From: an uncultured Chloroflexia bacterium
Lineage (GTDB): Bacteria; Chloroflexota; Anaerolineae; CG2-30-64-16
Assembly (NCBI GenBank): GCA_963774265.1
Contig: CAVZDU010000002.1
Span: forward strand, 736,001-800,000
Length of the DNA: 64,000 bases
Direction: 5' to 3'
The notes under the pieces are model-generated. The model made no database searches. It was given only the letters and a program-made list of their open reading frames with translations, and was not told the origin of the DNA. Made by a program: the position numbers and the translations under genes. Shown here piece after piece: positions 22,838 through 41,965 of this stretch. How positions within the stretch are numbered: position 1 is the stretch's first letter; each line of letters begins with the position of its first letter.

Positions 22838-22872
22838 AACGCATGCGGTTAAGTCCGCCATGGGCCGGCATC

Positions 22873-23996
22873 TAAGTAGGTAACAGAAAATTCGGGGCAC
22901 TTCTTCGTTGCCTGATATACTGGGGTTACGGAGGGTGCCATGATCTATGTACGAACACCAACGGATGCTGAACTGCAAGAGCTCAAGCGAATGACCCGCC
23001 ATGAGATCGGGCGGGTTAGCCAACGAGCGCAGATGGTTCTGCTCTCAGCGCAGCAGCGCACGGTGCCTGAGATCGCCGTCATCTTTGGCGTCAAGTACAA
23101 GACCGTGCGCAAATGGCTCCGCCGCTTCAATGCGGCCGGGCCGGCCGGACTGTATGATGAGCCGCGCAGTGGGCGGCCGCGGACGCTGACCGACCGTGTC
23201 CGTGACACTTTGGTCGACATGAGCGAGCAGGATCCCGAGCAGTCGGACTATCCCGCGACCTTGTGGACGGTTGCGATGCTGGCCTTAGCCTTGGCCGAGA
23301 AGATCGGCGTGTATCTGAGCCATAGCACCCTGCGTCAGACGCTGCATGCGGCCGGCCTGGCCTGGAGCCGCCCACGACTCGCCATGCCCCGCAAGACTGA
23401 TCCGCAGAAGGCGGCCAAGCAGTGGGCAATAGTGCAGGCCGTGATTGGGGCTGGCCCAGCTGCAGTCGTGCTGTACGCCGACGAATCGCGCATCCAGATG
23501 CTACCGTTGATTCGAGCAATGTGGCATCGGCTGGGCCAGCAGATCCGTGTCCCGACGCCCGGCAGCAATCAGACGCGCAGCCTATTTGGAGCGCTCAACA
23601 TTCGCACGGGCCAGTGGACGTGGTTGATCCGCGAGCATATGCACAAAGAAGACTTCATCACTTTCCTGGAACACCTGTTGACGGTGTATGCCAGCGGTCC
23701 GATCATTCTGATCGTCGATAACTACTCCAGCCATACGGCTAAGGCCATCGATGCCTGGCTGACTGAGCACCCGCGACTCCAGTTGCACTACCTGCCGAAG
23801 TACTGCTCGCATCTGAATCCGGTTGAGAACATCTGGCTGCGTCTCAAAGGCCAGACCGCCGCTGACCGCTTGTACGGTTCGCTGCATGGTCTGCTGGACG
23901 CCGTCACACGCTTCTTCGACCATATGACGCCAGCGATGGCGTTGACCTGGGCCAGTCTCGACTGAAAAGTGACCCGTACTTTTTGTGACATACTTA
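22873..23996 (+). mobile_element. IS630-family element, copy 1
   Basis: Imperfect IRs TAAGTAGGTAACAGAAAA / TTTTTGTGACATACTTA; duplicated TA inside a CTAG target; 1124 bp, same length as copy 2. Confidence 0.95.
22940..23965 (+). CDS. IS630 transposase
   Basis: HTH; YADES; IVDNYSSH; LPKYCSHLNPVENIW (DDE). Confidence 0.95.
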   Translation: MIYVRTPTDAELQELKRMTRHEIGRVSQRAQMVLLSAQQRTVPEIAVIFGVKYKTVRKWLRRFNAAGPAGLYDEPRSGRPRTLTDRVRDTLVDMSEQDPEQSDYPATLWTVAMLALALAEKIGVYLSHSTLRQTLHAAGLAWSRPRLAMPRKTDPQKAAKQWAIVQAVIGAGPAAVVLYADESRIQMLPLIRAMWHRLGQQIRVPTPGSNQTRSLFGALNIRTGQWTWLIREHMHKEDFITFLEHLLTVYASGPIILIVDNYSSHTAKAIDAWLTEHPRLQLHYLPKYCSHLNPVENIWLRLKGQTAADRLYGSLHGLLDAVTRFFDHMTPAMALTWASLD

Positions 23997-24087
23997 GCCA
24001 CCGCATGGAGCCGACGCAACCGCTTTGCGGCAAGCGTCGACTCTGAAGCCAGTCATGCGGTTGCGCGGCTCATGCGGCACGTTGGGT
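23997..24087 (+). other. Integron attC site with its R'' end interrupted by IS630
   Basis: CCGCATG(G)AGCCG(A)CGCAACCGC pairs with GCGGTTGCGCGGCTCATGCGG, leaving two extrahelical bases; followed by R' GTTGGGT. Confidence 0.85.
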
Positions 24088-28253: not shown

Positions 28254-29084
28254 ATGCCGCTGACGGATCAGATCATCCTCATTACCGGCGGTGGCCGCGG
28301 GCTCGGGCACGCCTTTGCGGACGCACTTGCGGCTGCAGGTGCCCATGTCGTCGTGACGGCCCGATCCGTTCCTGAACTCCAGCGCACGGTGGATGCTATC
28401 ACGCAGCGTGGTGGACGGGCCACGGCCATGCCCGCCGACGTCACCGATCCGGCGGCGATCCAGCGGGTGGTCATGACCATTGAAGCCCATGTCGGGCCGA
28501 TTGATCTGCTGATCAACAGTGCCGGGACCTTTCGCGCCTTTGGAGCGATAGCGACCGTTGACCCCGACGACTGGTGGCGTGAGGTCGAGATCAATGTGCG
28601 CGGCCCCTTCTTGTGTACGCATGCCGTCCTGCCGGCCATGATCCAACGCGGCCGTGGGCGCATTATCAACCTCGCGAGCGGGGCGGGACTCCAACCGTTT
28701 GAAACCATCTCAGCCTACAGTCTGAGCAAGACAGCGGTGATTCGCCTCACGGAGAGCACCGCCCTCGAAACCCAGCCCTATGGCATTGCTGTGTTTGCGA
28801 TCGATCCGGGGACGGTGCGGACCCCGATGACCGCCCATGTCGTCGAGTCGCCCGCGGTGGCGCAGCAGGCACCGCTCGTCCGCCAGTGGTTTGATCAGTT
28901 GTATGCGACCAATGGGGATACGCCGATCACCCAGGCGGTGGAGCTGGTGCTGGCGTTAGCCACCGGACAGGCCGATGCGTTGACAGGCTGTTATCTCAGC
29001 GTTGAGGACAATCTGGCAGCATTGATCCAGCAGGCTGGTCAGATTCAGCAGACGAGCCGGCGGAAACTGCGGGTCACCCTCTGA
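28254..29084 (+). CDS. Short-chain dehydrogenase/reductase
   Basis: TGGGRGLG; INSAG; YSLSK; GGAGG RBS. Confidence 0.95.
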   Translation: MPLTDQIILITGGGRGLGHAFADALAAAGAHVVVTARSVPELQRTVDAITQRGGRATAMPADVTDPAAIQRVVMTIEAHVGPIDLLINSAGTFRAFGAIATVDPDDWWREVEINVRGPFLCTHAVLPAMIQRGRGRIINLASGAGLQPFETISAYSLSKTAVIRLTESTALETQPYGIAVFAIDPGTVRTPMTAHVVESPAVAQQAPLVRQWFDQLYATNGDTPITQAVELVLALATGQADALTGCYLSVEDNLAALIQQAGQIQQTSRRKLRVTL

Positions 29085-29128
29085 ACCCAGCCGGGGCGCG
29101 GTGGGTCAAGCGGGGGCGAGCCGGCGTC

Positions 29129-29176
29129 TTTGGTCGCAGGAAACGGCTTTGCGGTCATAGTGGCTTGTGGTAACAT
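29129..29176 (+). repeat. Conserved ~48-bp motif, copy A (B at 35560, C at 35938); candidate promoter/operator of the TIR operon
   Basis: 22/30 identity to the B and C cores; TTTGCG, 17 bp, TAACAT. Confidence 0.55.
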
Positions 29177-29268
29177 TTATCCCAGCCAGCCTAAAGCCCC
29201 AGCTATCTGACCACCACCGAGGTCTGATCAGATCGCGGTTTCTCTCGACTTTCCGCCAGGATCGGGTC

Positions 29269-30000
29269 ATGAGTGCCGAAAACACCCAGTTCGACATCTT
29301 CCTCTCCCACAACGGTGCGGACAAGCCCGCCGTTGAGGCGCTCGCGCAACGACTGCTGGCGGCCGGGTTCAAGCCCTGGCTGGACTCCTGGAACCTGATC
29401 CCCGGCGACCCCTGGCAGGAAGGACTTGAGGAGGCGCTGGACACCTGCGGCACTTGCGCCGTGTTCCTGGGCCCCTCCGGCGTCGGCCCCTGGCACAACG
29501 AGGAAATGCGCGTCGCGCTGGACCGCCGCGCCCACGACCCCACCCGCAGCTTCCGGGTGATCCCCGTCCTGCTCCCGGGCGCCAACCCTGCTGACTCGGC
29601 TACACTCCCGCGTTTCCTGAGCCGAATGACCTGGGTGGATTTCCGCGGCGGGCTGGATGATGCCGAAGCGTTTCGCCGCCTGGTGGCAGGCATACGCGGC
29701 GTCGCACCCGGCCCCGGCGCATCCACCGGCGCCAGGGCAACGCCGCCAGCATCAGCCAGCGCGCCCACCTCGCAAGCCCTGACCTCCACCCCGCGCTGGC
29801 TGCTGGAAGCAGAGCTGACCCGTCTTCGGGCCCAATACGACACCTGGAGCCGGCGCATTGCGGCCCTCGACGCCGACATCGGCCGGGCGTTGGGCAACCT
29901 GGAGAAGCAAGTGTTGGAAGAACGCCGGGCCGAAGTGGCTGCCGAGCGCCAGAAGGTCGCCGACCAGATGCAGGAGATCGAGGCTAAACTGAACACCTGA
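29269..30000 (+). CDS. TIR domain + C-terminal coiled-coil (EAD-like) adaptor protein
   Basis: FDIFLSHN...WHNEE...VIPVLLPG...TWVDFR (TIR); C-terminus LRAQYDTWSRRIAALDADIGRAL...LEERRAEVAAERQKV. Confidence 0.85.
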   Translation: MSAENTQFDIFLSHNGADKPAVEALAQRLLAAGFKPWLDSWNLIPGDPWQEGLEEALDTCGTCAVFLGPSGVGPWHNEEMRVALDRRAHDPTRSFRVIPVLLPGANPADSATLPRFLSRMTWVDFRGGLDDAEAFRRLVAGIRGVAPGPGASTGARATPPASASAPTSQALTSTPRWLLEAELTRLRAQYDTWSRRIAALDADIGRALGNLEKQVLEERRAEVAAERQKVADQMQEIEAKLNT

Positions 30001-30015
30001 TAGTGACGAGCTGCC

Positions 30016-33000
30016 ATGCCGGACCAAGCGCCACGCTACGAAGTCTTCCTGTCGCACAACAGCGCCGATAAAGCGGCCGTTGAGGACATCGCGCGCCGGC
30101 TGATCGCGGCTGGCCTCCAGCCTTTTCTGGACCAGTGGCACCTGATCCCTGGCCAGCCGTGGATGGAAAGTGTAGAGAACGCACTGGCGGATAGCGCGAG
30201 CGTAGCCATCTTCGTTGGACCGTCGGGGATCAGCCCGTGGCACAACGAGGAGATGCGCGCGGCGCTCGATGAAGCGGTCCGCACGCGCGACGACTATCGG
30301 GTGATTCCTGTGCTCCTGCCCGGCGCTGACGAGACTGCGGTGGCACGTTTCCTGGCGCGACGGACATGGGTGGATTTCCGCGCCGGGCTCGACGACACCG
30401 AAGCCTTTCAACGCCTGGTCGCGGGCATCCAGGGCCAGGCTATTGACATCGGCCAATACCGGCTGCCCGATGAGCCGGCACCCTACCGCGGCCTGCTCCC
30501 CTTTGAGGCAGAGCACGCCCGCTTCTTCTTCGGCCGCGACGCTGATATTGCGAGACTGATAGAGAAGCTAGGGCGGCAGTCCTTCGTTGCTGTCGTAGGT
30601 GCGTCGGGCAGCGGCAAATCCTCCCTGGTCAAAGCTGGTCTGTTGCCCAGACTGAAAGCCAACGCCTTGACCGACAGTGGACGCTGGCATGTATTGACGA
30701 TGACTCCAGGCAGCCAGCCGCTCCCGCGCGTTGGCCGGTCAGCTTGCCACCTTCGTGCCCCCGCTCGACCGGCCGGACGCGGCCGACAAACTGGCCAGCC
30801 GCCTGGCCGAGCGGACAGACGGCTTGCGCACAACCCTGACCGCCTTGCTGGCCGATAAGCCGCGCCCTGCCCTGCTCTTCGTGGACCAGTTCGAGGAGCT
30901 TTTCACCCTCTGCCGCGGACGGGCCGGAGCACTGCCGAATGGCGGCCGAGCAGTTCATCGCCAACCTGGCCGATGCCGCGGAGCGGGGCGACGGCCAGAT
31001 TCGAGTCGTCCTCACCCTCCGCGCCGATTTCCTCGACCGCTGCCTGGCCTACCCTGACCTGCGTAAGTTGTTGGAAGATCGCCAACTGCTGCTGGGTCCC
31101 CTGGCCCAAGCCGATCTGCGCGACGCCATCGTGCGTCCCGCCCAACAGGTCGGCGCGTTCCTGGAAAAGGGCCTGGTCAATGCCATCCTGGCTGACGTCG
31201 GCGACGAGCCGGGCAACCTGCCACTGGTGCAGCACGCCCTCCACGAGCTGTGGCTGGCCCGCCGCGGCCCGTGGCTGACCCTGGACGCCTACGAGGCCAG
31301 CGGCGGCGTGGCGGGGGCGCTCGGTCGCCGCGCTCAGGCCACCTACGATGCCCTGCCACCAGAACAGCAGATCATCGCGCGCAACATCCTCCTGCGCCTT
31401 GCCACGCTAGGCGAAGGAGTCAGCGACACCCGGCGGCGGGCCGAGCGCGCGGAACTCTACCCGGTTGGCGTCGATCCGGCGCAGGTCAATGCCGTCATCC
31501 AAGCACTCTCGGGGCCGGACGCGCGCCTGCTTGTGACCGATGAAGACACCGTTGACATGGCCCACGAGGCGCTGATCCAGGGGTGGAGCGCCTTACGCGG
31601 CTGGCTCGAGGCGAGTCGTGAAGCGTTGCGCACGCAGCACCGGCTGACGGAGGCGGCCAACGAGTGGGGACGCGATCGAGACGAAAGCTACCTCTACCGT
31701 GGCGTACGGTTGGCAGAGATTGAGGAATGGGCCGCAGTGCACGGCCGCGGGATGAACGCGCTGGAAGCGGAATTTGTCCGGATAAGCGTTGCGATGCGTG
31801 ATCGCGAAGCCCTGCGTGAAGATGAACGTCGGCGACGCGAATTGGAGCAGGCGCAAGCCCTGGCCCGTGAGCAACAGCAACGGGCAGAGGCCCAGAAAGC
31901 TTCAGCGATACGCCTGCGCCAGCGCGCCTTGCTGGCGGGCATGATCGGCTTAGTCGCATTGGTCTTTGCGTTCTTTGCGATCAGATTTGGTCTGCAGGCG
32001 CAGGCCAATGCCAACCGAGCGCGCACGCTTGAGCAATATGCAAATGAAAAAGCGGATGACTTGCAAGTCGCCCTCGTCGGAGAGCGGGAAGCTCTCATTC
32101 GAGAGCAGGATGCTCTCTCCCAGACAGTGAAGACTCTGGACCTCCTCAGCACTCGTGAAGTTGAGGCGCGCGCGGCGCAAGCGACTGCTGAATTCGCGAG
32201 AGTTGAGGAGGCTGAGGCCCGTGAGATGGCGGTAGACGAGCGCAACCGCGCCGAAGAACAGGTGCGCGTGGCCCGCAGCCGCCAGTTCGCCACCTATGCT
32301 GAAGCGGCATGGCCGGCTCTGCCCCAGCGCAGCCTGCTGCTCGGGGTCGAGGCGCTCCGCCAGACGCTGGATGCGGGGGAGCCGTCCGTCCCCGCGGCCG
32401 AAGACGTGGTGCGCCAGGCGCTGGTTAGCTTTAGCGGCCAGACCCTGGGCGGCCACCAGGGCGGCGTTACCGTCGCGGCCATTAGCCCTGACGGCCGCTG
32501 GTTGGCGTCCGGCGGCGGCAGCTTGTTCAGTCAAAAGGGTGATACTAACCTTCACTGGTGGGACCTTGAGGCCCCCGATCCGGCAGTCAGCCACCAGGTG
32601 ATCCCTTTGGGCGACGGTTTCCTGTATCATGCTCGCTTCAGCCCGGACGCGCATTGGCTGGTGGGCAGCACGTTGGAACGGCAGGAGAATGAGCTGCGTG
32701 TGGCATCGCATCTATGGAAAGTCAGCGCCGCCGGCCTGCGGTCCACGTCGTGGCTCTCGTCGACCCTACCGATCGCCTTTAGCGCCGACGGCCGATGGTT
32801 GGTCAGCAGCCAGGGCGGGCTGCTGGGCGGAGAATCCTCTGGCCTGCTCCTGTGGGACATGATGGCGGTACCCCCCACCTCCAACACGTTGATGTCAGCT
32901 CCCCTGACGGTCTTGTCCGGGTTTGAGACAGACCAGCGTTGGCTTGTGGCCAGCGGCGCGGACGGCCGGCTCTACCTGTGGGACCTCCTCGCGCTGAGCC

Positions 33001-34889
33001 CCACGGCTGCTCCGGTCTCGCTGCCGGCTATGGGGGAAGTGAAGCAGGTTGCGGCCAGCCGCGATGGCCGGTGGCTGGCCGCGAGCCGTGCGGCTGGTCC
33101 GGTACACGTCTGGAATCTGGCCCGGCCGGATGCTCCCCCGACTGCCCTGGATGCCGGCATAGAAGTGGATAAGCTCGCGTTCAGCCCGAACGGCCGTTGG
33201 CTGCTCGTCCAGCCGCAGGAAGGCAGCATCTCGCTGTGGCGCCTGGAAGATCCTGGCCCCGTCTCGCCATCGCTGCTGCTATCCGGCCGGTTCTATGGCA
33301 GCCTCCAGATTGCCTTCAGCCCTGATAGCCGCTGGCTGGCGGTAGCCGTCATGGGGGTCGCGCCTCGCGTCTTGGATATGAGAGCCCCGGACCCGCCTGC
33401 CAGCGAGCTCGTGCTGACCGGCCAGTCGTGCGGGGGGCTGCTCGTCATCAGCGCGGACAGCCGTTGGTTGGTGGCTGTCGACGGCGCCCAAACCTGCATC
33501 TGGGACCTTGCCGCGAACCTCTCCGGCCAGGACCCGGTCGTCCTGCGCGGCCGGGAATCCAGCAACATGTCGCCATCGATCAGCCAGGCTGGTCGATGGC
33601 TGGCGGTCGGCGGCAGTGGGATGGTGCAACTGCACGATCTCACGCAGCCTTTGCCTGTGCCGCCGGGCACACTGCGCAGCACCCACCGCTCGGATATCGA
33701 ATGGTTCGGCGTCACCCAGGACGGCCACTGGCTGGTCACGGCCGACGACTATGACACGCGGCTTTGGGATTTGACCGGCCCGGCCATCTCGCGCGTCATC
33801 ACCACCACCACCGGCTACGGCAATAAGTCCCCCACCCTCAGCCCGGATCGCCGCTGGCTGATCTTCGAGGGGGCCGACGGCGCCATCTATCGCACGGACA
33901 TGCAGGCAGCCGATCCGGTTGCCGGCATAGGTAAGCTCTCCGGCCCCGTCAGCAACGTCCAGCGCATCCACGTCGACCGTGATAGCCGGGAGATCGTGGC
34001 TCTGGCGGCCGACGCGAAGCTCTATCGCTGGCGGCTCGCCGAGCCCGACCGTCAGCCCGAGGTCCAGGCCCTGCCCGGCGGTGACAGCAGCATCGGTGAC
34101 TCGCGGATAAGCCCCGACAACCGCTGGGTCGTCATGGGATTCCGCGTGCCCGTGCTCTTCGTCGGCGTCGCCAATCAGACGCTGCTGTGGGATACGGACG
34201 CCGCGGCGGGCGCTGGCCCCTACAATGTCAAGGCGGAGCAATCGGCCACCAGCGCCGTGGCCTTCAGCGCCGACAGCCGCACCCTGTTCACCGCCAGCAC
34301 CGACGGCGCCGTGCGTGCCTGGGACTTGGCTGCGCCTGATCCAACGGTCGATCCGCGGCTGCTCCGGGGCAATCCCTACCTGGTGACCGCCCTGGCCGCC
34401 AGTCCCGACGGGCGCTGGCTGGTAGCCGGCACGGGCTGCCCGCTCATCATCGGGGAGTGCGATCACTCGGTTCGCCTCTGGGACCTGGCACTGGCTGATC
34501 CAGGCGCGCCGCCGCTGATCCTGCGGGGGCACGCGGCCGATATCCGGGGTCTGGCGTTCAGCAGCGACGGTCGCTGGCTGGTCACGGGAGATAGTAGCAG
34601 TGTTCTGCGCTTGTGGGACCTGGCCGCTGCGCAGCCCAGCGCCACCGTGCGCCAACTGCCGGGTGACGCGGGCGACGTGTCCTATTTTGCCTTCAGCGCG
34701 GACGATCTGACACTGATCAGCGCGAGCCAGGATGGCATCATCCGTTTTGCGCCCCTGCGCGCCGAATCTCTCCTCGCCGCGGCCTGCCGCGCTGTGGGCC
34801 GCAACCTGTCGGTCGAGGAGTGGCAGCGCTATTTCCCTAGCGAGGACTATCGTCCCACCTGCAGCCAATGGCCTGACGCGTTGTGGTGA
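30016..34889 (+). CDS. TIR - nSTAND1 NTPase - TM - WD40 repeat protein (frameshifts near 30728 and 30935)
   Basis: TIR (FLSHN, WHNEE); PYRGLLPF; GASGSGKSS; VDQFEELF; TLRADF; GNLPL; AHEAL; TM ALLAGMIGLVALVFAFFA; many xSPDGRWL/WD repeats; C-terminal CRAVGRNLSVEEWQRY. Confidence 0.9.
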
Positions 34890-34952
34890 TCTACCGCGGT
34901 GACGGTGGCGGAGAGGATCAGGCTACGAACCATCAACTGAGAGGGTCCGAAT

Positions 34953-35523
34953 ATGCCTATCGACCAGGGGTCAGCCGAGGATATGCACCTGAGGACGCAA
35001 CTGGACGAGCTGCAGCGGCGCTATGATGTCCTGACAAGACGCATCGCGGCTCTTGACATCGACATAGGTCGCGAATTGGACTCCGAGCGCAAGCTTATCC
35101 TTCAAGAGCGTCGAGCGGATCTGGAGGCTGAACGGGATCAAATCCTAAACGACCTGGTAGAATTGGATTCCGCCGTCCGCGATTCGCGACGGAGTGACAC
35201 GGTCGCGCCGCCGCGTCCTCACCCAACCTCTGCGCCAACAACTCGTGGACGCGGTTCTGCGGATTCCGGCATCCGATTCCTTTGAGGGAAGAACAGCGTT
35301 CGTGCTGGGCCTACCTGCATCACTGAGTCGCAGTCCCACCAACGCACGCGCGGACCTCGATGCGATCTTCGGGCAACTCGATGGACTGGGCCGGTTGGAT
35401 TCGGGTCAGTGGCCGCTGCTTGTGGTGATCGACAACATTCTGACCTATGCCCGTGGTTTCGAAGTTCACGGGATCATCAGCCAGGTCAGGCAGGGCCTGG
35501 AAGACGCCTACCGCGGCCATTGA
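34953..35523 (+). CDS. Coiled-coil + effector-associated-domain-like two-domain adaptor (probable frameshift near 35210)
   Basis: N-terminus LQRRYDVLTRRIAALDIDIGREL...LQERRADLEAERDQI is homologous to the C-terminus of 29269-30000. A second frame gives LRQQLVDAVLRIP...GRLDSGQWPLLVVIDN (helical, EAD-like). Confidence 0.65.
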
Positions 35524-35559
35524 TGTACGGTCAGCGGCGCGTACGCCTCCCGCCCGCGG

Positions 35560-35606
35560 TTGTATCGCACGATACGACTTCACGGTCATCCCACCTGGGC
35601 TATCAT
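35560..35606 (+). repeat. Conserved motif, copy B
   Basis: ttgtatcgcacgatacgacttcacggtcat, 27/30 identical to copy C. Confidence 0.75.
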
Positions 35607-35763
35607 GGCGACACTAATGTCGCCGCAGTCGGACGCCATCACACCCTGCACCTAACGTTGAGCCCAGGGCCACGTCCGCAAGGGCGGCGCCGCAGGCTCC
35701 CTGCGCATCGCCTGCCCAGATGCCTTTGTCAGCACCGCGACCCGCCCCCTGTGTATTCCCGTC

Positions 35764-35967
35764 TTAGTCGATGCCGTATCGGCGCAGGGTGCGGCGGACG
35801 GTGTTCGTGTGGACGCGTTCGGAGAGCGCGATTTGGCTGAGGGTGCGGCCGGCGGCGAAGGCGGCGAGGATCTGGCTCGGCTGCAGGAGGCCGGCGCGGG
35901 TGGCGAATGAGGGGGTGAGGGTGTAGGTGAACGAGAATTGTATCGTACGATACGCCTTTACGGTCAT
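35764..35967 (-). CDS. Small HTH protein
   Basis: ILAAFAAGRTLSQIALSERVHTNTVRRTLRRYGI. Confidence 0.55.
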   Translation of the reverse strand: MTVKAYRTIQFSFTYTLTPSFATRAGLLQPSQILAAFAAGRTLSQIALSERVHTNTVRRTLRRYGID

Positions 35968-35980
35968 AACGAGCTGTGAT
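35938..35980 (+). repeat. Conserved motif, copy C (interrupted by IS66)
   Basis: ttgtatcgtacgatacgcctttacggtcat, containing the palindrome GTATCGTACGATAC. Confidence 0.75.
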
Positions 35981-37429
35981 GTAACTGTTCAGCGTTGGGG
36001 TAAGGGAGTTTAGATGGGTGCGGGTGCGCAGGCGGTCTGGGGTAGTTGGAGGGCGCGCAGACACTCGGTCAGCGGATTCAGGCGGCGGGCCTGCCAGGTA
36101 CCGAACACACTGGCCAAGGTGAAGCGGGTATCGGTGCCGGCGGCGGAGCGCGAGCCGCCGCTGATTTTGCGCAGCACGACCAAGGGCCGAATGCTGCGCT
36201 CAGCCAGATTATTATCGGCTGGCACCTCCGGCAGGAGTACAAACTGAAATAACTCGTCTTGGTGGCGCAGCAGGCGTTTCGCCAGGACCGCACAGGGCTG
36301 GGCGGGCTCCAGCGCATACTGCTGACCCAGGACACAGGCGCGGGTGTGCAGGCGCAGATACTGCTGGGTCCGGGCCGCGGCGCTGGGCGTCGGGTGCTCG
36401 TGGAGCCAGGTCTGGGCGTCCTCGTAGAGTTGGCGGACGGCCGCGGCCCACGCCAGCACCTCCGCCGTCGCCCCGTGGGCCTCTTTGAGGGCATGCAGGT
36501 CGCGCAACAGATGCACCCAGCAGCGCTGATGGTGGCCGGGGATCGGGTTGTAGGCCGCATAGAAATCCGTGACCAGACAACCCCGCCAGTCGGGACCCAA
36601 GACCCGCTGCGGCACGAAGTGGCTGCGGCCGGGATCGTACGCGTAGTAGCGCACGGCCGCCGGACCTGCGGTCACAAAAGCCCAGGCCCAACCGTTCTGA
36701 CCGCACTCGCGCCAGCTCGTTTCGTCGCCATGCACTACCGGGCTGGCCTGTACGGCCCGTTTGAGTTGCTCCGCGAGCGGCTGCAAGTGCTGCTGGACAT
36801 CGTGCGCCAATTCGGCGATCTCCCCAATGCTGAGGTGCAGGCCATGCAGCGTCTGCAAGTAACTCTGCACCAGCCGCACCGGCAGTCGCAACGTCGTGCG
36901 CAAGTACGCCACCACGCTGGCGATGCGCACCCCAATCCGCCCCTGCCCAAATACCTGACCGCTCAGATCCAGTTGGGGGCTGCGCCAGCGCACACAGTGC
37001 GGACACCAGCGCTTCACCACCTGATGCTCGATCACTTCCACCGGCTGCGGCGGCGGCAACTCCACCACTTCACGGCTATAGTCGAGGCTCTCGCCGTGCA
37101 AAGGATACTGGCAGTCCGGACAGCGCGCCAACGCATGCCGCTCGACACGCGTCGCAACCATCCGCTTGCGCGACGTGTTGTGCTCGGCCGCGCGCTTCTT
37201 ACGCGGCGCGGGCGGGGTCTGAGCCTTCTGGCGATTCGGCTTTACGAACGCCGGCGGATCACCCCGCTGCTGCAGCTGCGCTTCCAGCTCATTGATCCGC
37301 GCTAGGGCGAGCGCTAACTGCTCCCGCAACTCGGCATTCGCCGCTCTCAGGCGCTCGAATGCCTGCTCTTCATCAAGGGTCATGCCCTAATCATGCCATA
37401 GCCTGTCAAGGGTAACGCTGAACAGTTAC
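35981..37429 (-). mobile_element. IS66-family element (single-ORF, ISBst12-like)
   Basis: Perfect 16-bp IRs GTAACTGTTCAGCGTT; 8-bp target duplication GCTGTGAT (35973-35980 and 37430-37437). Confidence 0.95.
36010..37383 (-). CDS. IS66 transposase
   Basis: Leucine zipper; CPDC/CPHC zinc finger; HGDET; QRCWVHLLR; DNNLAERSIR. Confidence 0.95.
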   Translation of the reverse strand: MTLDEEQAFERLRAANAELREQLALALARINELEAQLQQRGDPPAFVKPNRQKAQTPPAPRKKRAAEHNTSRKRMVATRVERHALARCPDCQYPLHGESLDYSREVVELPPPQPVEVIEHQVVKRWCPHCVRWRSPQLDLSGQVFGQGRIGVRIASVVAYLRTTLRLPVRLVQSYLQTLHGLHLSIGEIAELAHDVQQHLQPLAEQLKRAVQASPVVHGDETSWRECGQNGWAWAFVTAGPAAVRYYAYDPGRSHFVPQRVLGPDWRGCLVTDFYAAYNPIPGHHQRCWVHLLRDLHALKEAHGATAEVLAWAAAVRQLYEDAQTWLHEHPTPSAAARTQQYLRLHTRACVLGQQYALEPAQPCAVLAKRLLRHQDELFQFVLLPEVPADNNLAERSIRPLVVLRKISGGSRSAAGTDTRFTLASVFGTWQARRLNPLTECLRALQLPQTACAPAPI

Positions 37430-40558: not shown

Positions 40559-40763
40559 AAGAGGAGTGTGTGATGGCAGCTGTCACGGCTTTGCTCCCTC
40601 TGAATGCATGGAAGATTGACCGCTCCAAGCCAGGCAGCGCCAGGACGCGAAGGTCGAGCTCTTGTGTGGTGAGATACTTGCACATCGCTGGCCCATGATG
40701 CGCCGGACCGTTGTTCCAGGACAGAGCGCCGTTTCAGCGCTTCAAAGTTCCGAAACAACCGTC

Positions 40764-41887
40764 TAAGTAGGTAACAGAAAATTCGGGGCACTTCTTCGTT
40801 GCCTGATATACTGGGGTTACGGAGGGTGCCATGATCTATGTACGAACACCAACGGATGCTGAACTGCAAGAGCTCAAGCGAATGACCCGCCATGAGATCG
40901 GGCGGGTTAGCCAACGAGCGCAGATGGTTCTGCTCTCAGCGCAGCAGCGCACGGTGCCTGAGATCGCCGTCATCTTTGGCGTCAAGTACAAGACCGTGCG
41001 CAAATGGCTCCGCCGCTTCAATGCGGCCGGGCCGGCCGGACTGTATGATGAGCCGCGCAGTGGGCGGCCGCGGACGCTGACCGACCGTGTCCGTGACACT
41101 TTGGTCGACATGAGCGAGCAGGATCCCGAGCAGTCGGACTATCCCGCGACCTTGTGGACGGTTGCGATGCTGGCCTTAGCCTTGGCCGAGAAGATCGGCG
41201 TGTATCTGAGCCATAGCACCCTGCGTCAGACGCTGCATGCGGCCGGCCTGGCCTGGAGCCGCCCACGACTCGCCATGCCCCGCAAGACTGATCCGCAGAA
41301 GGCGGCCAAGCAGTGGGCAATAGTGCAGGCCGTGATTGGGGCTGGCCCAGCTGCAGTCGTGCTGTACGCCGACGAATCGCGCATCCAGATGCTACCGTTG
41401 ATTCGAGCAATGTGGCATCGGCTGGGCCAGCAGATCCGTGTCCCGACGCCCGGCAGCAATCAGACGCGCAGCCTATTTGGAGCGCTCAACATTCGCACGG
41501 GCCAGTGGACGTGGTTGATCCGCGAGCATATGCACAAAGAAGACTTCATCACTTTCCTGGAACACCTGTTGACGGTGTATGCCAGCGGTCCGATCATTCT
41601 GATCGTCGATAACTACTCCAGCCATACGGCTAAGGCCATCGATGCCTGGCTGACTGAGCACCCGCGACTCCAGTTGCACTACCTGCCGAAGTACTGCTCG
41701 CATCTGAATCCGGTTGAGAACATCTGGCTGCGTCTCAAAGGCCAGACCGCCGCTGACCGCTTGTACGGTTCGCTGCATGGTCTGCTGGACGCCGTCACAC
41801 GCTTCTTCGACCATATGACGCCAGCGATGGCGTTGACCTGGGCCAGTCTCGACTGAAAAGTGACCCGTACTTTTTGTGACATACTTA
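40764..41887 (+). mobile_element. IS630-family element, copy 2
   Basis: Same IRs, length and CTAG target as copy 1. Confidence 0.95.
40831..41856 (+). CDS. IS630 transposase
   Basis: Protein identical to 22940-23965. Confidence 0.95.
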   Translation: MIYVRTPTDAELQELKRMTRHEIGRVSQRAQMVLLSAQQRTVPEIAVIFGVKYKTVRKWLRRFNAAGPAGLYDEPRSGRPRTLTDRVRDTLVDMSEQDPEQSDYPATLWTVAMLALALAEKIGVYLSHSTLRQTLHAAGLAWSRPRLAMPRKTDPQKAAKQWAIVQAVIGAGPAAVVLYADESRIQMLPLIRAMWHRLGQQIRVPTPGSNQTRSLFGALNIRTGQWTWLIREHMHKEDFITFLEHLLTVYASGPIILIVDNYSSHTAKAIDAWLTEHPRLQLHYLPKYCSHLNPVENIWLRLKGQTAADRLYGSLHGLLDAVTRFFDHMTPAMALTWASLD

Positions 41888-41965
41888 GAGCCGACTGAAG
41901 GCAGATTACCACCTGTCCAGTCAGCCATCCAACGCTCTCAACTTGCGGTATCGGACCGCTTTCAA

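Follow-up and report, generated by a model that had tools for sequence, protein, structure and literature searches.

A TIR–nSTAND1–WD40 gene flanked by EAD-type adaptor genes in an uncultured Chloroflexia bacterium: a locus of known type with an unusual multi-tier layout

A 64,000-nucleotide stretch from the assembly of an uncultured Chloroflexia bacterium (contig CAVZDU010000002.1, positions 736,001 to 800,000; the whole stretch is called the window here) carries, at positions 29269-35523, three co-oriented genes that are linked pairwise by duplicated domains. Genes 1 and 2 begin with closely related TIR domains, gene 2 continuing into an nSTAND1 NTPase, a predicted transmembrane (TM) helix and WD40 propellers, and genes 1 and 3 share a helical hairpin resembling the effector-associated domains (EADs) of bacterial conflict systems. 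The locus is real and well defined; its kind has been described in print, but its multi-tier layout is unusual. We lean, with limited confidence, towards the view that it encodes an EAD-coupled STAND conflict module, directed against invaders or serving cell suicide, in which chained homotypic contacts would lead to effectors dispersed over the genome. The features of the locus are as follows.

29269..30000, plus strand: gene 1, 243 amino acids (aa); TIR_2, a Pro/Ala/Ser linker and a C-terminal EAD9-type helical hairpin
About 29296-29685, plus strand: gene-1 TIR_2 (Pfam, 96.7 bits)
About 29803-29985, plus strand: gene-1 hairpin, homologous to the gene-3 hairpin
30016..34889, plus strand: gene 2, TIR-nSTAND1-TM-WD40; about 1620 aa when its frames are joined
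30016 to about 30723, about 30724 to about 30913, and about 30914 to 34889, plus strand: the frames of gene 2
30043..30420, plus strand: gene-2 TIR (Pfam TIR_2, residues 10-135, 96.8 bits)
30481..31679, plus strand: nSTAND1 NTPase module, with GASGSGKSS and DQFEELF in translation; includes both gene-2 breaks
30722..30724, plus strand: frame break 1, a CCC run with one base too many
30912..30914, plus strand: frame break 2, one base too many
31920..32000, plus strand: predicted TM helix ALLAGMIGLVALVFAFFAIRFGL (Kyte-Doolittle), with the NTPase on one side and the WD40 region on the other
32436..34889, plus strand: coiled-coil stalk, then WD40 beta-propeller repeats, the presumed sensor (Pfam WD40, 140.8 bits)
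34953..35216, plus strand: gene 3, first frame; EAD9-type hairpin (residues 13-73) and linker
35217..35523, plus strand: second frame of gene 3, with the EAD-like, wholly helical C-terminal domain (Cdom), for which the overlapping open reading frame (ORF) is 35194-35523

The spacing is 15 nt between genes 1 and 2 and 63 nt between genes 2 and 3, all on the plus strand. A promoter and terminator scan of 28900-36100 gave 1 and 6 candidates, against 0.8 and 3.6 expected from shuffled sequence, which is near chance and tells nothing of how the operon is organised.

Shared domains and the architecture of gene 2

An earlier note on this DNA, made from the letters and a list of ORFs, had judged the TIRs of genes 1 and 2 to be roughly 60% identical. 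This is borne out by alignment, in which 87 of 148 residues (59%) are the same (E 1e-58), and in the whole 5.5-Mb assembly TIR_2 occurs in these two genes only. A WHNEE motif in both domains aligns with WTEYE of the AbTir-like PDB entry 7uxr, so that the glutamate of the WxxxE motif, which we take to be catalytic, is kept in each. Both TIRs therefore look like enzymes rather than inert adaptors. To judge from these residues, the gene-2 TIR is itself probably an effector that cleaves NAD+, and NAD+ cleavage is likely to be part of the output of the system.

The helical segment that had been noticed in genes 1 and 3 is likewise a genuine common domain. Residues 179-239 of gene 1 and residues 13-73 of ORF 34953-35285 agree at 27 of 61 positions (44%, E 8e-16), a similarity far beyond chance. 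AlphaFold2, run on an eight-sequence alignment, models the domain as a hairpin of about 70 aa made of helices 5-40 and 44-79 (pLDDT 90.0), and genes 1 and 3 hold the only two copies in the bacterium's own assembly. Both copies score below the 25-bit cut-off of the Pfam family EAD9 (PF19962), gene 3 with 16.9 bits (E 0.0053) and gene 1 with 14.0 bits (E 0.042). A search of 1.84 billion cluster representatives with a hairpin profile returned 310 matches at E<=1e-3, 190 of them at E<=1e-10, and Pfam families were counted at E<=1e-3 in the best 150 of the 310. The EAD families matched are EAD9 in 16 (best 4.4e-15), EAD1 in 6, EAD7 in 5 and EAD8 in 2; the other families in the same best 150 are CHAT (9), TIR_2 (7), AAA_16 (6), AAA_22 (6) and FGE-sulfatase (5), followed by the rarer caspase, protein kinase and nSTAND2 (2 each). 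Since the window copies fall below the cut-off, yet 16 of 150 representatives match EAD9, the hairpin appears to be a divergent EAD9 branch, and it is here called EAD9-type rather than a certified EAD9 member.

As described by Kaur, Burroughs, Iyer and Aravind (eLife 2020, PMC7159879) and by Kaur, Iyer, Burroughs and Aravind (eLife 2021, PMC8195603), EADs are small, non-catalytic, helical terminal domains that occur in several copies per genome on TIR, trypsin, caspase and other effectors as well as on core NTPases. The hairpin is small, non-catalytic and mostly alpha-helical; among the matches listed, in proteins of 59-887 aa, it lies nearly always at or near a terminus, and its partners are varied effector and signalling domains. 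The sequence comparisons thus support reading it as an EAD-type adaptor, terminal and promiscuously fused, as the earlier note had suspected of what it called a coiled coil. Among relatives of the bacterium, the hairpin is found on a caspase in G006 and on EAD1 in G031. The best match to the profile, the 620-aa database protein P0020, consists of a ParA/CbiA-like P-loop region, the hairpin and a TIR, and may be connected with the ParA-like NTPases that a 2026 preprint treats in the context of immunity. A scan of genome contigs with the hairpin alignment, for which one peptide pattern was usable, gave three loci, two of them already known.

Small proteins that combine the hairpin with another EAD recur, as in P0076 (with EAD5), P0027 (with EAD7), P0029 and P0033 (with EAD1), and P0080 and L018 (with EAD8). 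The architecture proposed for gene 3 is therefore ordinary for the family.

For gene 2, the domain content TIR-nSTAND1-TM-WD40 given by the earlier note is confirmed by Pfam matches and by the hydrophobic helix at 31920-32000. The nSTAND1 model (PF20703) is matched in pieces of 109.2, 25.3 and 265.7 bits, which together span model positions 1-375 of 379. Gene 2 is assigned to nSTAND1 on this full-length match, above the 27.1-bit cut-off, and on its P-loop and Walker B motifs, which we take to be GASGSGKSS and DQFEELF, respectively. The WD40 region extends over about 800 aa and is also matched by many other beta-propeller families of Pfam. A TM helix stands at the equivalent position, directly after nSTAND1, in 10 of 11 proteins analysed by the Kyte-Doolittle method, these being gene 2 itself, nine metagenome TIR-nSTAND1 homologues (eight with the helix; it is absent from L054) and the nSTAND1 protein of the same-genus relative G004. 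One membrane pass would therefore place the TIR-NTPase part and the propellers on opposite sides of the membrane, and the gene-2 sensor may face outward, with extracytoplasmic propellers. The conservation of this helix suggests that some STAND sensors possibly read outside signals, which, if true, would widen the view of these proteins as cytoplasmic sensors of phage proteins.

The same parts could also serve signalling outside defence, such as recognition between cells, or cell death during development, in a filamentous bacterium. Such a role would suit propellers that the conserved TM helix may place outside the cytoplasm, phage and defence genes are absent next to the locus, and Kaur et al. 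tie systems of this type to a multicellular habit and apoptosis-like processes. However, the TIR-STANDs studied so far act in immunity (PMC13581612), and we regard this explanation as improbable.

Frame breaks and the quality of the assembly

The earlier description of three co-oriented genes holds for their domains and pairing but not for uninterrupted ORFs: gene 2 is spread over three frames and gene 3 over two, and the breaks had gone unmentioned. Model positions 1-88 of nSTAND1 are matched in the frame 30016-30858, positions 95-133 in 30731-31057 and positions 137-375 in 30939-34889. To read gene 2 as one protein requires a +1 change of frame at each of two places, close to 30723 and to 30913, and gene 3 requires a single frame change near 35216.

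These three breaks are most likely indel errors of the assembly. We read them in this way because rpoB and rpoC are split as well, because short-read contigs lack the extra base of gene 2 and because an orthologue of gene 2 is intact. In the own assembly (5.5 Mb in 10 contigs, with 84% marker completeness), rpoB is divided between two frames, and rpoC is split at model position 312, within the conserved KGKQGRFR stretch, by what reads as one extra base (both genes lie in G000:C7:822-8551). Read contigs from soil metagenomes, which match the window at about 98% identity wherever they were compared with it, leave out one base at each site, at 30723 in X1 record 4 (290 nt, 5 mismatches) and at 30913 in X2 record 10 (151 nt, 3 mismatches); the read contigs cover small shares of the window (0.13, 0.05 and 0.00), both gene-2 breaks included. 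In the metagenome contig L019, the gene-2 orthologue is one intact frame of 1434 aa with the sequence PGSQPLRSLANQLA across break 1 and LFTLCADGPERCRM across break 2, and the window minus one base per gene-2 break gives the same reading. Once the breaks are corrected, gene 2 is most likely a TIR-nSTAND1-TM-WD40 protein of about 1620 aa.

In gene 3, the first-frame ORF as assembled continues to a stop at 35285, and the switch comes directly after CCGCCGCGT (35208-35216; Pro-Pro-Arg in the first frame). When gene 3 is aligned at the nucleotide level with its closest paralogue on contig C6, 2 nt are missing at the switch by comparison with CGTGTTCTCAC in the paralogue, VLTQPLRQQLVDAVL then comes in the second frame, and the homology continues through the switch. 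Joined on the strength of this alignment, the two frames would encode one protein with both domains, about 190 aa long. The database gene call for the gene-3 domain, P0001, is a truncated ORF of 73 aa. Programmed frameshifting was considered and rejected, as rpoB and rpoC carry the same kind of break. An assembly with indel errors calls for distrust of any broken gene in it; more generally, indel-rich assemblies fragment multi-domain defence genes, and gene callers overlook fusions.

Were the frameshifts real, genes 2 and 3 would be pseudogenes in a segment bounded by insertion sequences (IS), and nothing in the locus would work. Three frame breaks within 6.3 kb, the identical 1127-bp IS copies that flank the segment and the IS66 transposase inside it could all be read as signs of such decay. 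Yet the split rpoB and rpoC genes and the roughly 98% identical read contigs without the extra base at both gene-2 breaks speak against it, as do the long frames, which show no in-frame stops or other decay and include one of 1316 aa (30939-34889) that is open throughout. We consider decay very unlikely. The IS copies themselves are direct, IS630-type and 100% identical over 1127 bp (window positions 22871-23997 and 40762-41888), each encoding a 341-aa DDE_3/helix-turn-helix (HTH) transposase. They bracket about 16.8 kb with a CAAX protease, an APH-type kinase, DUF1214, SDR, the TIR locus and the IS66 transposase (36010-37383, minus strand), a layout that resembles a composite transposon.

A putative relay to dispersed effectors

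The small helical domain that gene 3 was said to add after the hairpin is indeed present at 35194-35523, and AlphaFold2 models it as a bundle of 5-6 helices (pLDDT 91.4). The model has no match in the PDB at E<=0.001 (best TM-score 0.38-0.39) and so gives no support for likeness to a Death-like or other solved fold. The gene-3 copy of this Cdom has no Pfam match at E<=10. Across the 22 members of the Cdom family, matches at E<=0.1 were to EAD8 in three (best 1.2e-4), to EAD2 in one and to EAD5 in one, all of them below threshold. An identification of Cdom with EAD8 (PF19961) was rejected, as hhalign gave a probability of 0.8% when two true EAD8 sequences were used for comparison. In the ESM Atlas, every one of the nearest clusters is EAD2, EAD5 or EAD8 (0.91-0.94), which serves as a lead only.

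The own genome contains five Cdom copies, that of gene 3 and four in a co-oriented cluster on contig C6.

L001:8640-12526 (G000:C6:242639-246525), co-oriented: C6 Cdom cluster, in the order EAD1-Cdom, EAD1-Cdom, zincin-Cdom, Cdom-Trypsin_2

The Cdom of the second-listed EAD1-Cdom protein is 77% identical to that of gene 3, and the zincin-Cdom protein carries the zincin motif HAFGHVLGLTHEH. This genome search thus supplied what the earlier note had predicted, an unlinked effector with the same EAD, in the form of the zincin-Cdom and Cdom-Trypsin_2 proteins. Several paralogues fused to effectors or other EADs (the hairpin, EAD1 twice, zincin and Trypsin_2) are what an EAD should display, and all 16 longer database homologues of Cdom are EAD1+Cdom proteins of about 206 aa. 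The proposal that the C-terminal domain of gene 3 is EAD-like is supported by the fusions and copies of Cdom, which misses every Pfam threshold. Its behaviour in sequence comparisons supports the description of Cdom as a lineage-specific helical EAD-like domain outside the current Pfam models. The C6 cluster is flanked by a glycyl-radical enzyme with its activase on one side and a HAD hydrolase on the other, with no NTPase nearby.

EAD1 gives eight matches in the own genome at E<=0.01, of which seven exceed the Pfam cut-off. Two are the C6 adaptors, and the other six are proteins or fragments in which EAD1 is joined to trypsin, FGE-sulfatase, TPR and unclassified membrane-anchored domains. A second EAD1 cluster (G000:C5:438016-442007) comprises an EAD1-TM-unknown and an EAD1-trypsin protein and, on the opposite strand, an EAD1-TM-TPR protein, whose EAD1 part and remainder are in different frames, another probable assembly frameshift. 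An EAD1-TM-FGE-sulfatase protein, possibly a sensor-type member of an EAD1 network, is encoded 32 kb past the window end (G000:C2:832023-833360).

From the domains, pairwise homologies, copy numbers and fusion partners observed, we infer the following chain of binding steps and its direction. Ligand would be bound by the WD40 propellers of gene 2, across the membrane helix from the rest of the protein, whereupon nSTAND1 would oligomerise and cluster the N-terminal TIRs. The paralogous TIR of gene 1 would join this assembly, the gene-1 hairpin would pair with that of gene 3, and the gene-3 Cdom would pair with the Cdoms of the C6 peptidases and of the EAD1-Cdom adaptors. Contacts between EAD1 domains could then bring in further EAD1-tagged proteins. 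The chain would in this way couple the genome's only TIR-STAND to dispersed peptidase and membrane effectors.

Part of the case for gene 2 as the driver of this chain proceeds by elimination. Inspection by eye revealed no EAD at the N-terminal ends of seven other nSTAND1-like NTPases of the own genome, which were not scanned with a domain library; they begin with an HTH/regulator-type region or with the NTPase itself. Given these N-termini and the copy numbers above, gene 2 would be the sole NTPase that the network can reach, and only through contact between TIRs. One nSTAND1 paralogue, of 1729 aa (G000:C5:360433-365620; L099:2934-8120), has an XRE-type HTH ahead of a complete nSTAND1 (427.5 bits), so that a DNA-binding head takes the place of the TIR in this STAND.

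Comparisons with other genomes bear on the bond between genes 1 and 2. Both have orthologues in L019, with identities to the window of 85% and 73%, and the paralogues are 59-62% identical; the value for the gene-1 TIR is 85%, and P0061 is a further gene-1 orthologue. Because the orthologues are more similar than the paralogues, the TIR duplication must predate the split of the two lineages, both of which kept the copies adjacent. Gene-1 orthologues came solely from metagenome contigs (L019, L020, L021 and L076). No gene-1 match spanning both domains was found in 41 relatives or in 401 class-level genomes, where the longest match covers residues 9-223 at 27% identity (G233:C88).

Elsewhere, the hairpin does occur on or beside core NTPases. 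The metagenome contig L021 carries a hairpin-NB-ARC STAND gene just after a TIR-hairpin gene, and AAA_16, AAA_22 and nSTAND2 are among the hairpin partners named above. In the same-genus relatives G004 and G005, an nSTAND1-TM gene is immediately preceded by two adjacent hairpin genes; BLASTP and the hairpin hidden Markov model revealed no significant domain common to these hairpin proteins and the neighbouring nSTAND1 protein (best E 0.13). A contig of a metagenome-assembled genome (L018:7800-12748) encodes, in a row, an EAD8-hairpin adaptor of 246 aa, a KAP NTPase-FGE-sulfatase protein of about 1010 aa and a TIR-hairpin protein of 516 aa. By its domain content this row follows the same logic as the window locus with another NTPase; an EAD8 on the N-terminus of the KAP-FGE-sulfatase protein, which would complete a relay, was not found.

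Several observations weigh against the relay. The three genes were not found together anywhere else, an outcome that the earlier note had named as counting against its reading, and genes 1 and 2 were found side by side in a single metagenome contig, L019. Among 36 metagenome TIR-nSTAND1 loci, 22 extend 800 nt or more upstream of the gene, and only the one in L019 has a TIR-hairpin neighbour; as the other 21 of these 22 homologues do without, gene 2 evidently can work alone. Even in L019, the gene that follows TIR-nSTAND1-WD40 (L019:5900-7630) encodes a TIR-NB-ARC protein and not an adaptor, making three TIR genes in a row. Neither hairpin of the window is on the core component, gene 2, where EAD systems usually have one copy. 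With no hairpin on the NTPase, the hairpin network is tied to gene 2 through TIR-TIR contact alone, a step that we purely infer. Nor are the hairpins of the locus mutual closest relatives: those of genes 1 and 3 are 38-44% identical, whereas that of gene 3 is 60-67% identical to those of G004 and G005 and that of gene 1 is 73% identical to that of L019. No hairpin+Cdom fusion was found in any database protein, and none of the 150 hairpin representatives matches Cdom by BLASTP. The gene-3 break lies outside the read-contig coverage. Finally, since the assembly is 84% complete, statements that a domain has its only copy in this genome are provisional, and the argument by elimination for gene 2 is weakened accordingly. 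A complex prediction for the two hairpins (score 0.00) carries no weight either way, as controls were not run.

In the main alternative, the locus consists of two modules that act independently and adjoin each other only because of an old TIR duplication. Gene 2 would then be a self-contained sensor-effector, and genes 1 and 3 would be parts of another EAD network, in which EAD1 sensors such as the EAD1-TM-FGE-sulfatase and EAD1-TM-TPR proteins reach the gene-1 TIR through EAD1-Cdom and Cdom-hairpin adaptors; this TIR would be a terminal effector and no bridge. The 21 of 22 homologues with sufficient upstream sequence that lack a TIR-hairpin partner agree with such independence, as does the retention of the WxxxE glutamate in both TIRs. 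In L021 and L018, moreover, the neighbours of the TIR-hairpin proteins are STAND or adaptor genes that bear the hairpin, as would suit tagged effectors, and the own genome has EAD1 proteins with sensor-like domains. Recruitment of EAD-tagged enzymatic domains by the core is also what Kaur et al. describe in the 2020 paper (PMC7159879). On the other hand, genes 1 and 2 remain adjacent in two lineages despite the divergence of the paralogues to about 60% identity, no EAD-bearing NTPase core that could act as driver was seen in the assembly, and the hairpin gene pairs of G004 and G005 also adjoin nSTAND1-TM genes. We hold this two-module explanation to be possible but on balance unlikely, and continue to prefer the EAD-coupled relay. 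The matched domains form a compact closed set of two hairpins, five Cdoms, two TIRs and two peptidase end points. For this reason a few constructs would suffice for tests of the like-binds-like rule, of paralogue specificity and of the direction of signalling.

Comparison with known systems

PADLOC-DB v2.0.0 gave no system-level match for the locus. Partial matches at the level of the TIR were to PDC-S66, bSEFIR, SAVED_TIR, Aga_TIR and ThsB (E 2e-9 to 0.08), and the gene-2 piece with the TIR and the P-loop had short matches limited to the P-loop, to mad3 (E 1.1e-5, residues 188-211), mad8 and AbiLi; the Walker-B piece and the NTPase/WD40 piece of gene 2 and gene 3 had none in PADLOC. The earlier statement that the arrangement is not a named defence system thus agrees with PADLOC, but the design principle of the locus has already been published, as set out by Kaur et al. 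(2020, 2021).

Gene 2 resembles single-protein TIR-STAND sensors of the Avs/bNACHT type in its N-terminal effector, central STAND NTPase and C-terminal repeat sensor, and differs from them in the conserved membrane helix between NTPase and propellers and in the adjacent paralogous TIR-adaptor gene. WD40 propeller sensors and nSTAND clades are included in a recent STAND phylogeny (Nature 2026, PMC13581612).

The layout also recalls the Toll-like receptor (TLR)-MyD88-IRAK pathway of animals. There, a repeat sensor lies across the membrane from a TIR, a second protein combines a TIR with a helical homotypic adaptor, and this adaptor recruits more proteins. The window locus is alike, by analogy only, in its order of sensor, membrane and TIR, in its TIR-adaptor protein and in recruitment through the adaptor. 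A full TLR-like receptor, with an outside ligand, a TM pass, TIR assembly, a MyD88-like gene 1 and a three-tier cascade to zincin and trypsin-like peptidases and EAD1 membrane proteins, is conceivable but unlikely. Unlike TLRs, gene 2 has its NTPase interposed between membrane helix and TIR, and the two TIRs have the look of enzymes; the adaptors do not have a Death fold, Cdom having no fold match in the PDB, and the candidate end points are peptidases instead of kinases.

The closest parallel is found in the EAD systems themselves. In PMC7159879 and PMC8195603, EAD copies occur both beside the core and elsewhere in the genome, and homotypic coupling is proposed by analogy with Death-fold adaptors; the second of these papers also names nSTAND1 and places TIR or EADs at the N-termini of STAND proteins. 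Stand-alone EAD-EAD adaptors and multi-step chains were not found in the passages searched of either paper, and the supplementary tables may list them. In the literature searched, no experimental test of any EAD interaction was found, and EAD8 and EAD9 in this sense were found in these two papers only. Compared with such systems, the window locus has no EAD on its NTPase, the TIR being the sole domain in common with the core, and its hairpins, not being mutual nearest relatives, depart from the published rule. It would instead employ stand-alone two-EAD adaptors, hairpin-Cdom and Cdom-EAD1, in up to four like-with-like steps, and it includes an EAD-like domain, Cdom, outside the Pfam EAD thresholds. 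What the locus would add to the published principle is thus a three-tier chain, an unmodelled EAD and a link made by two TIR domains.

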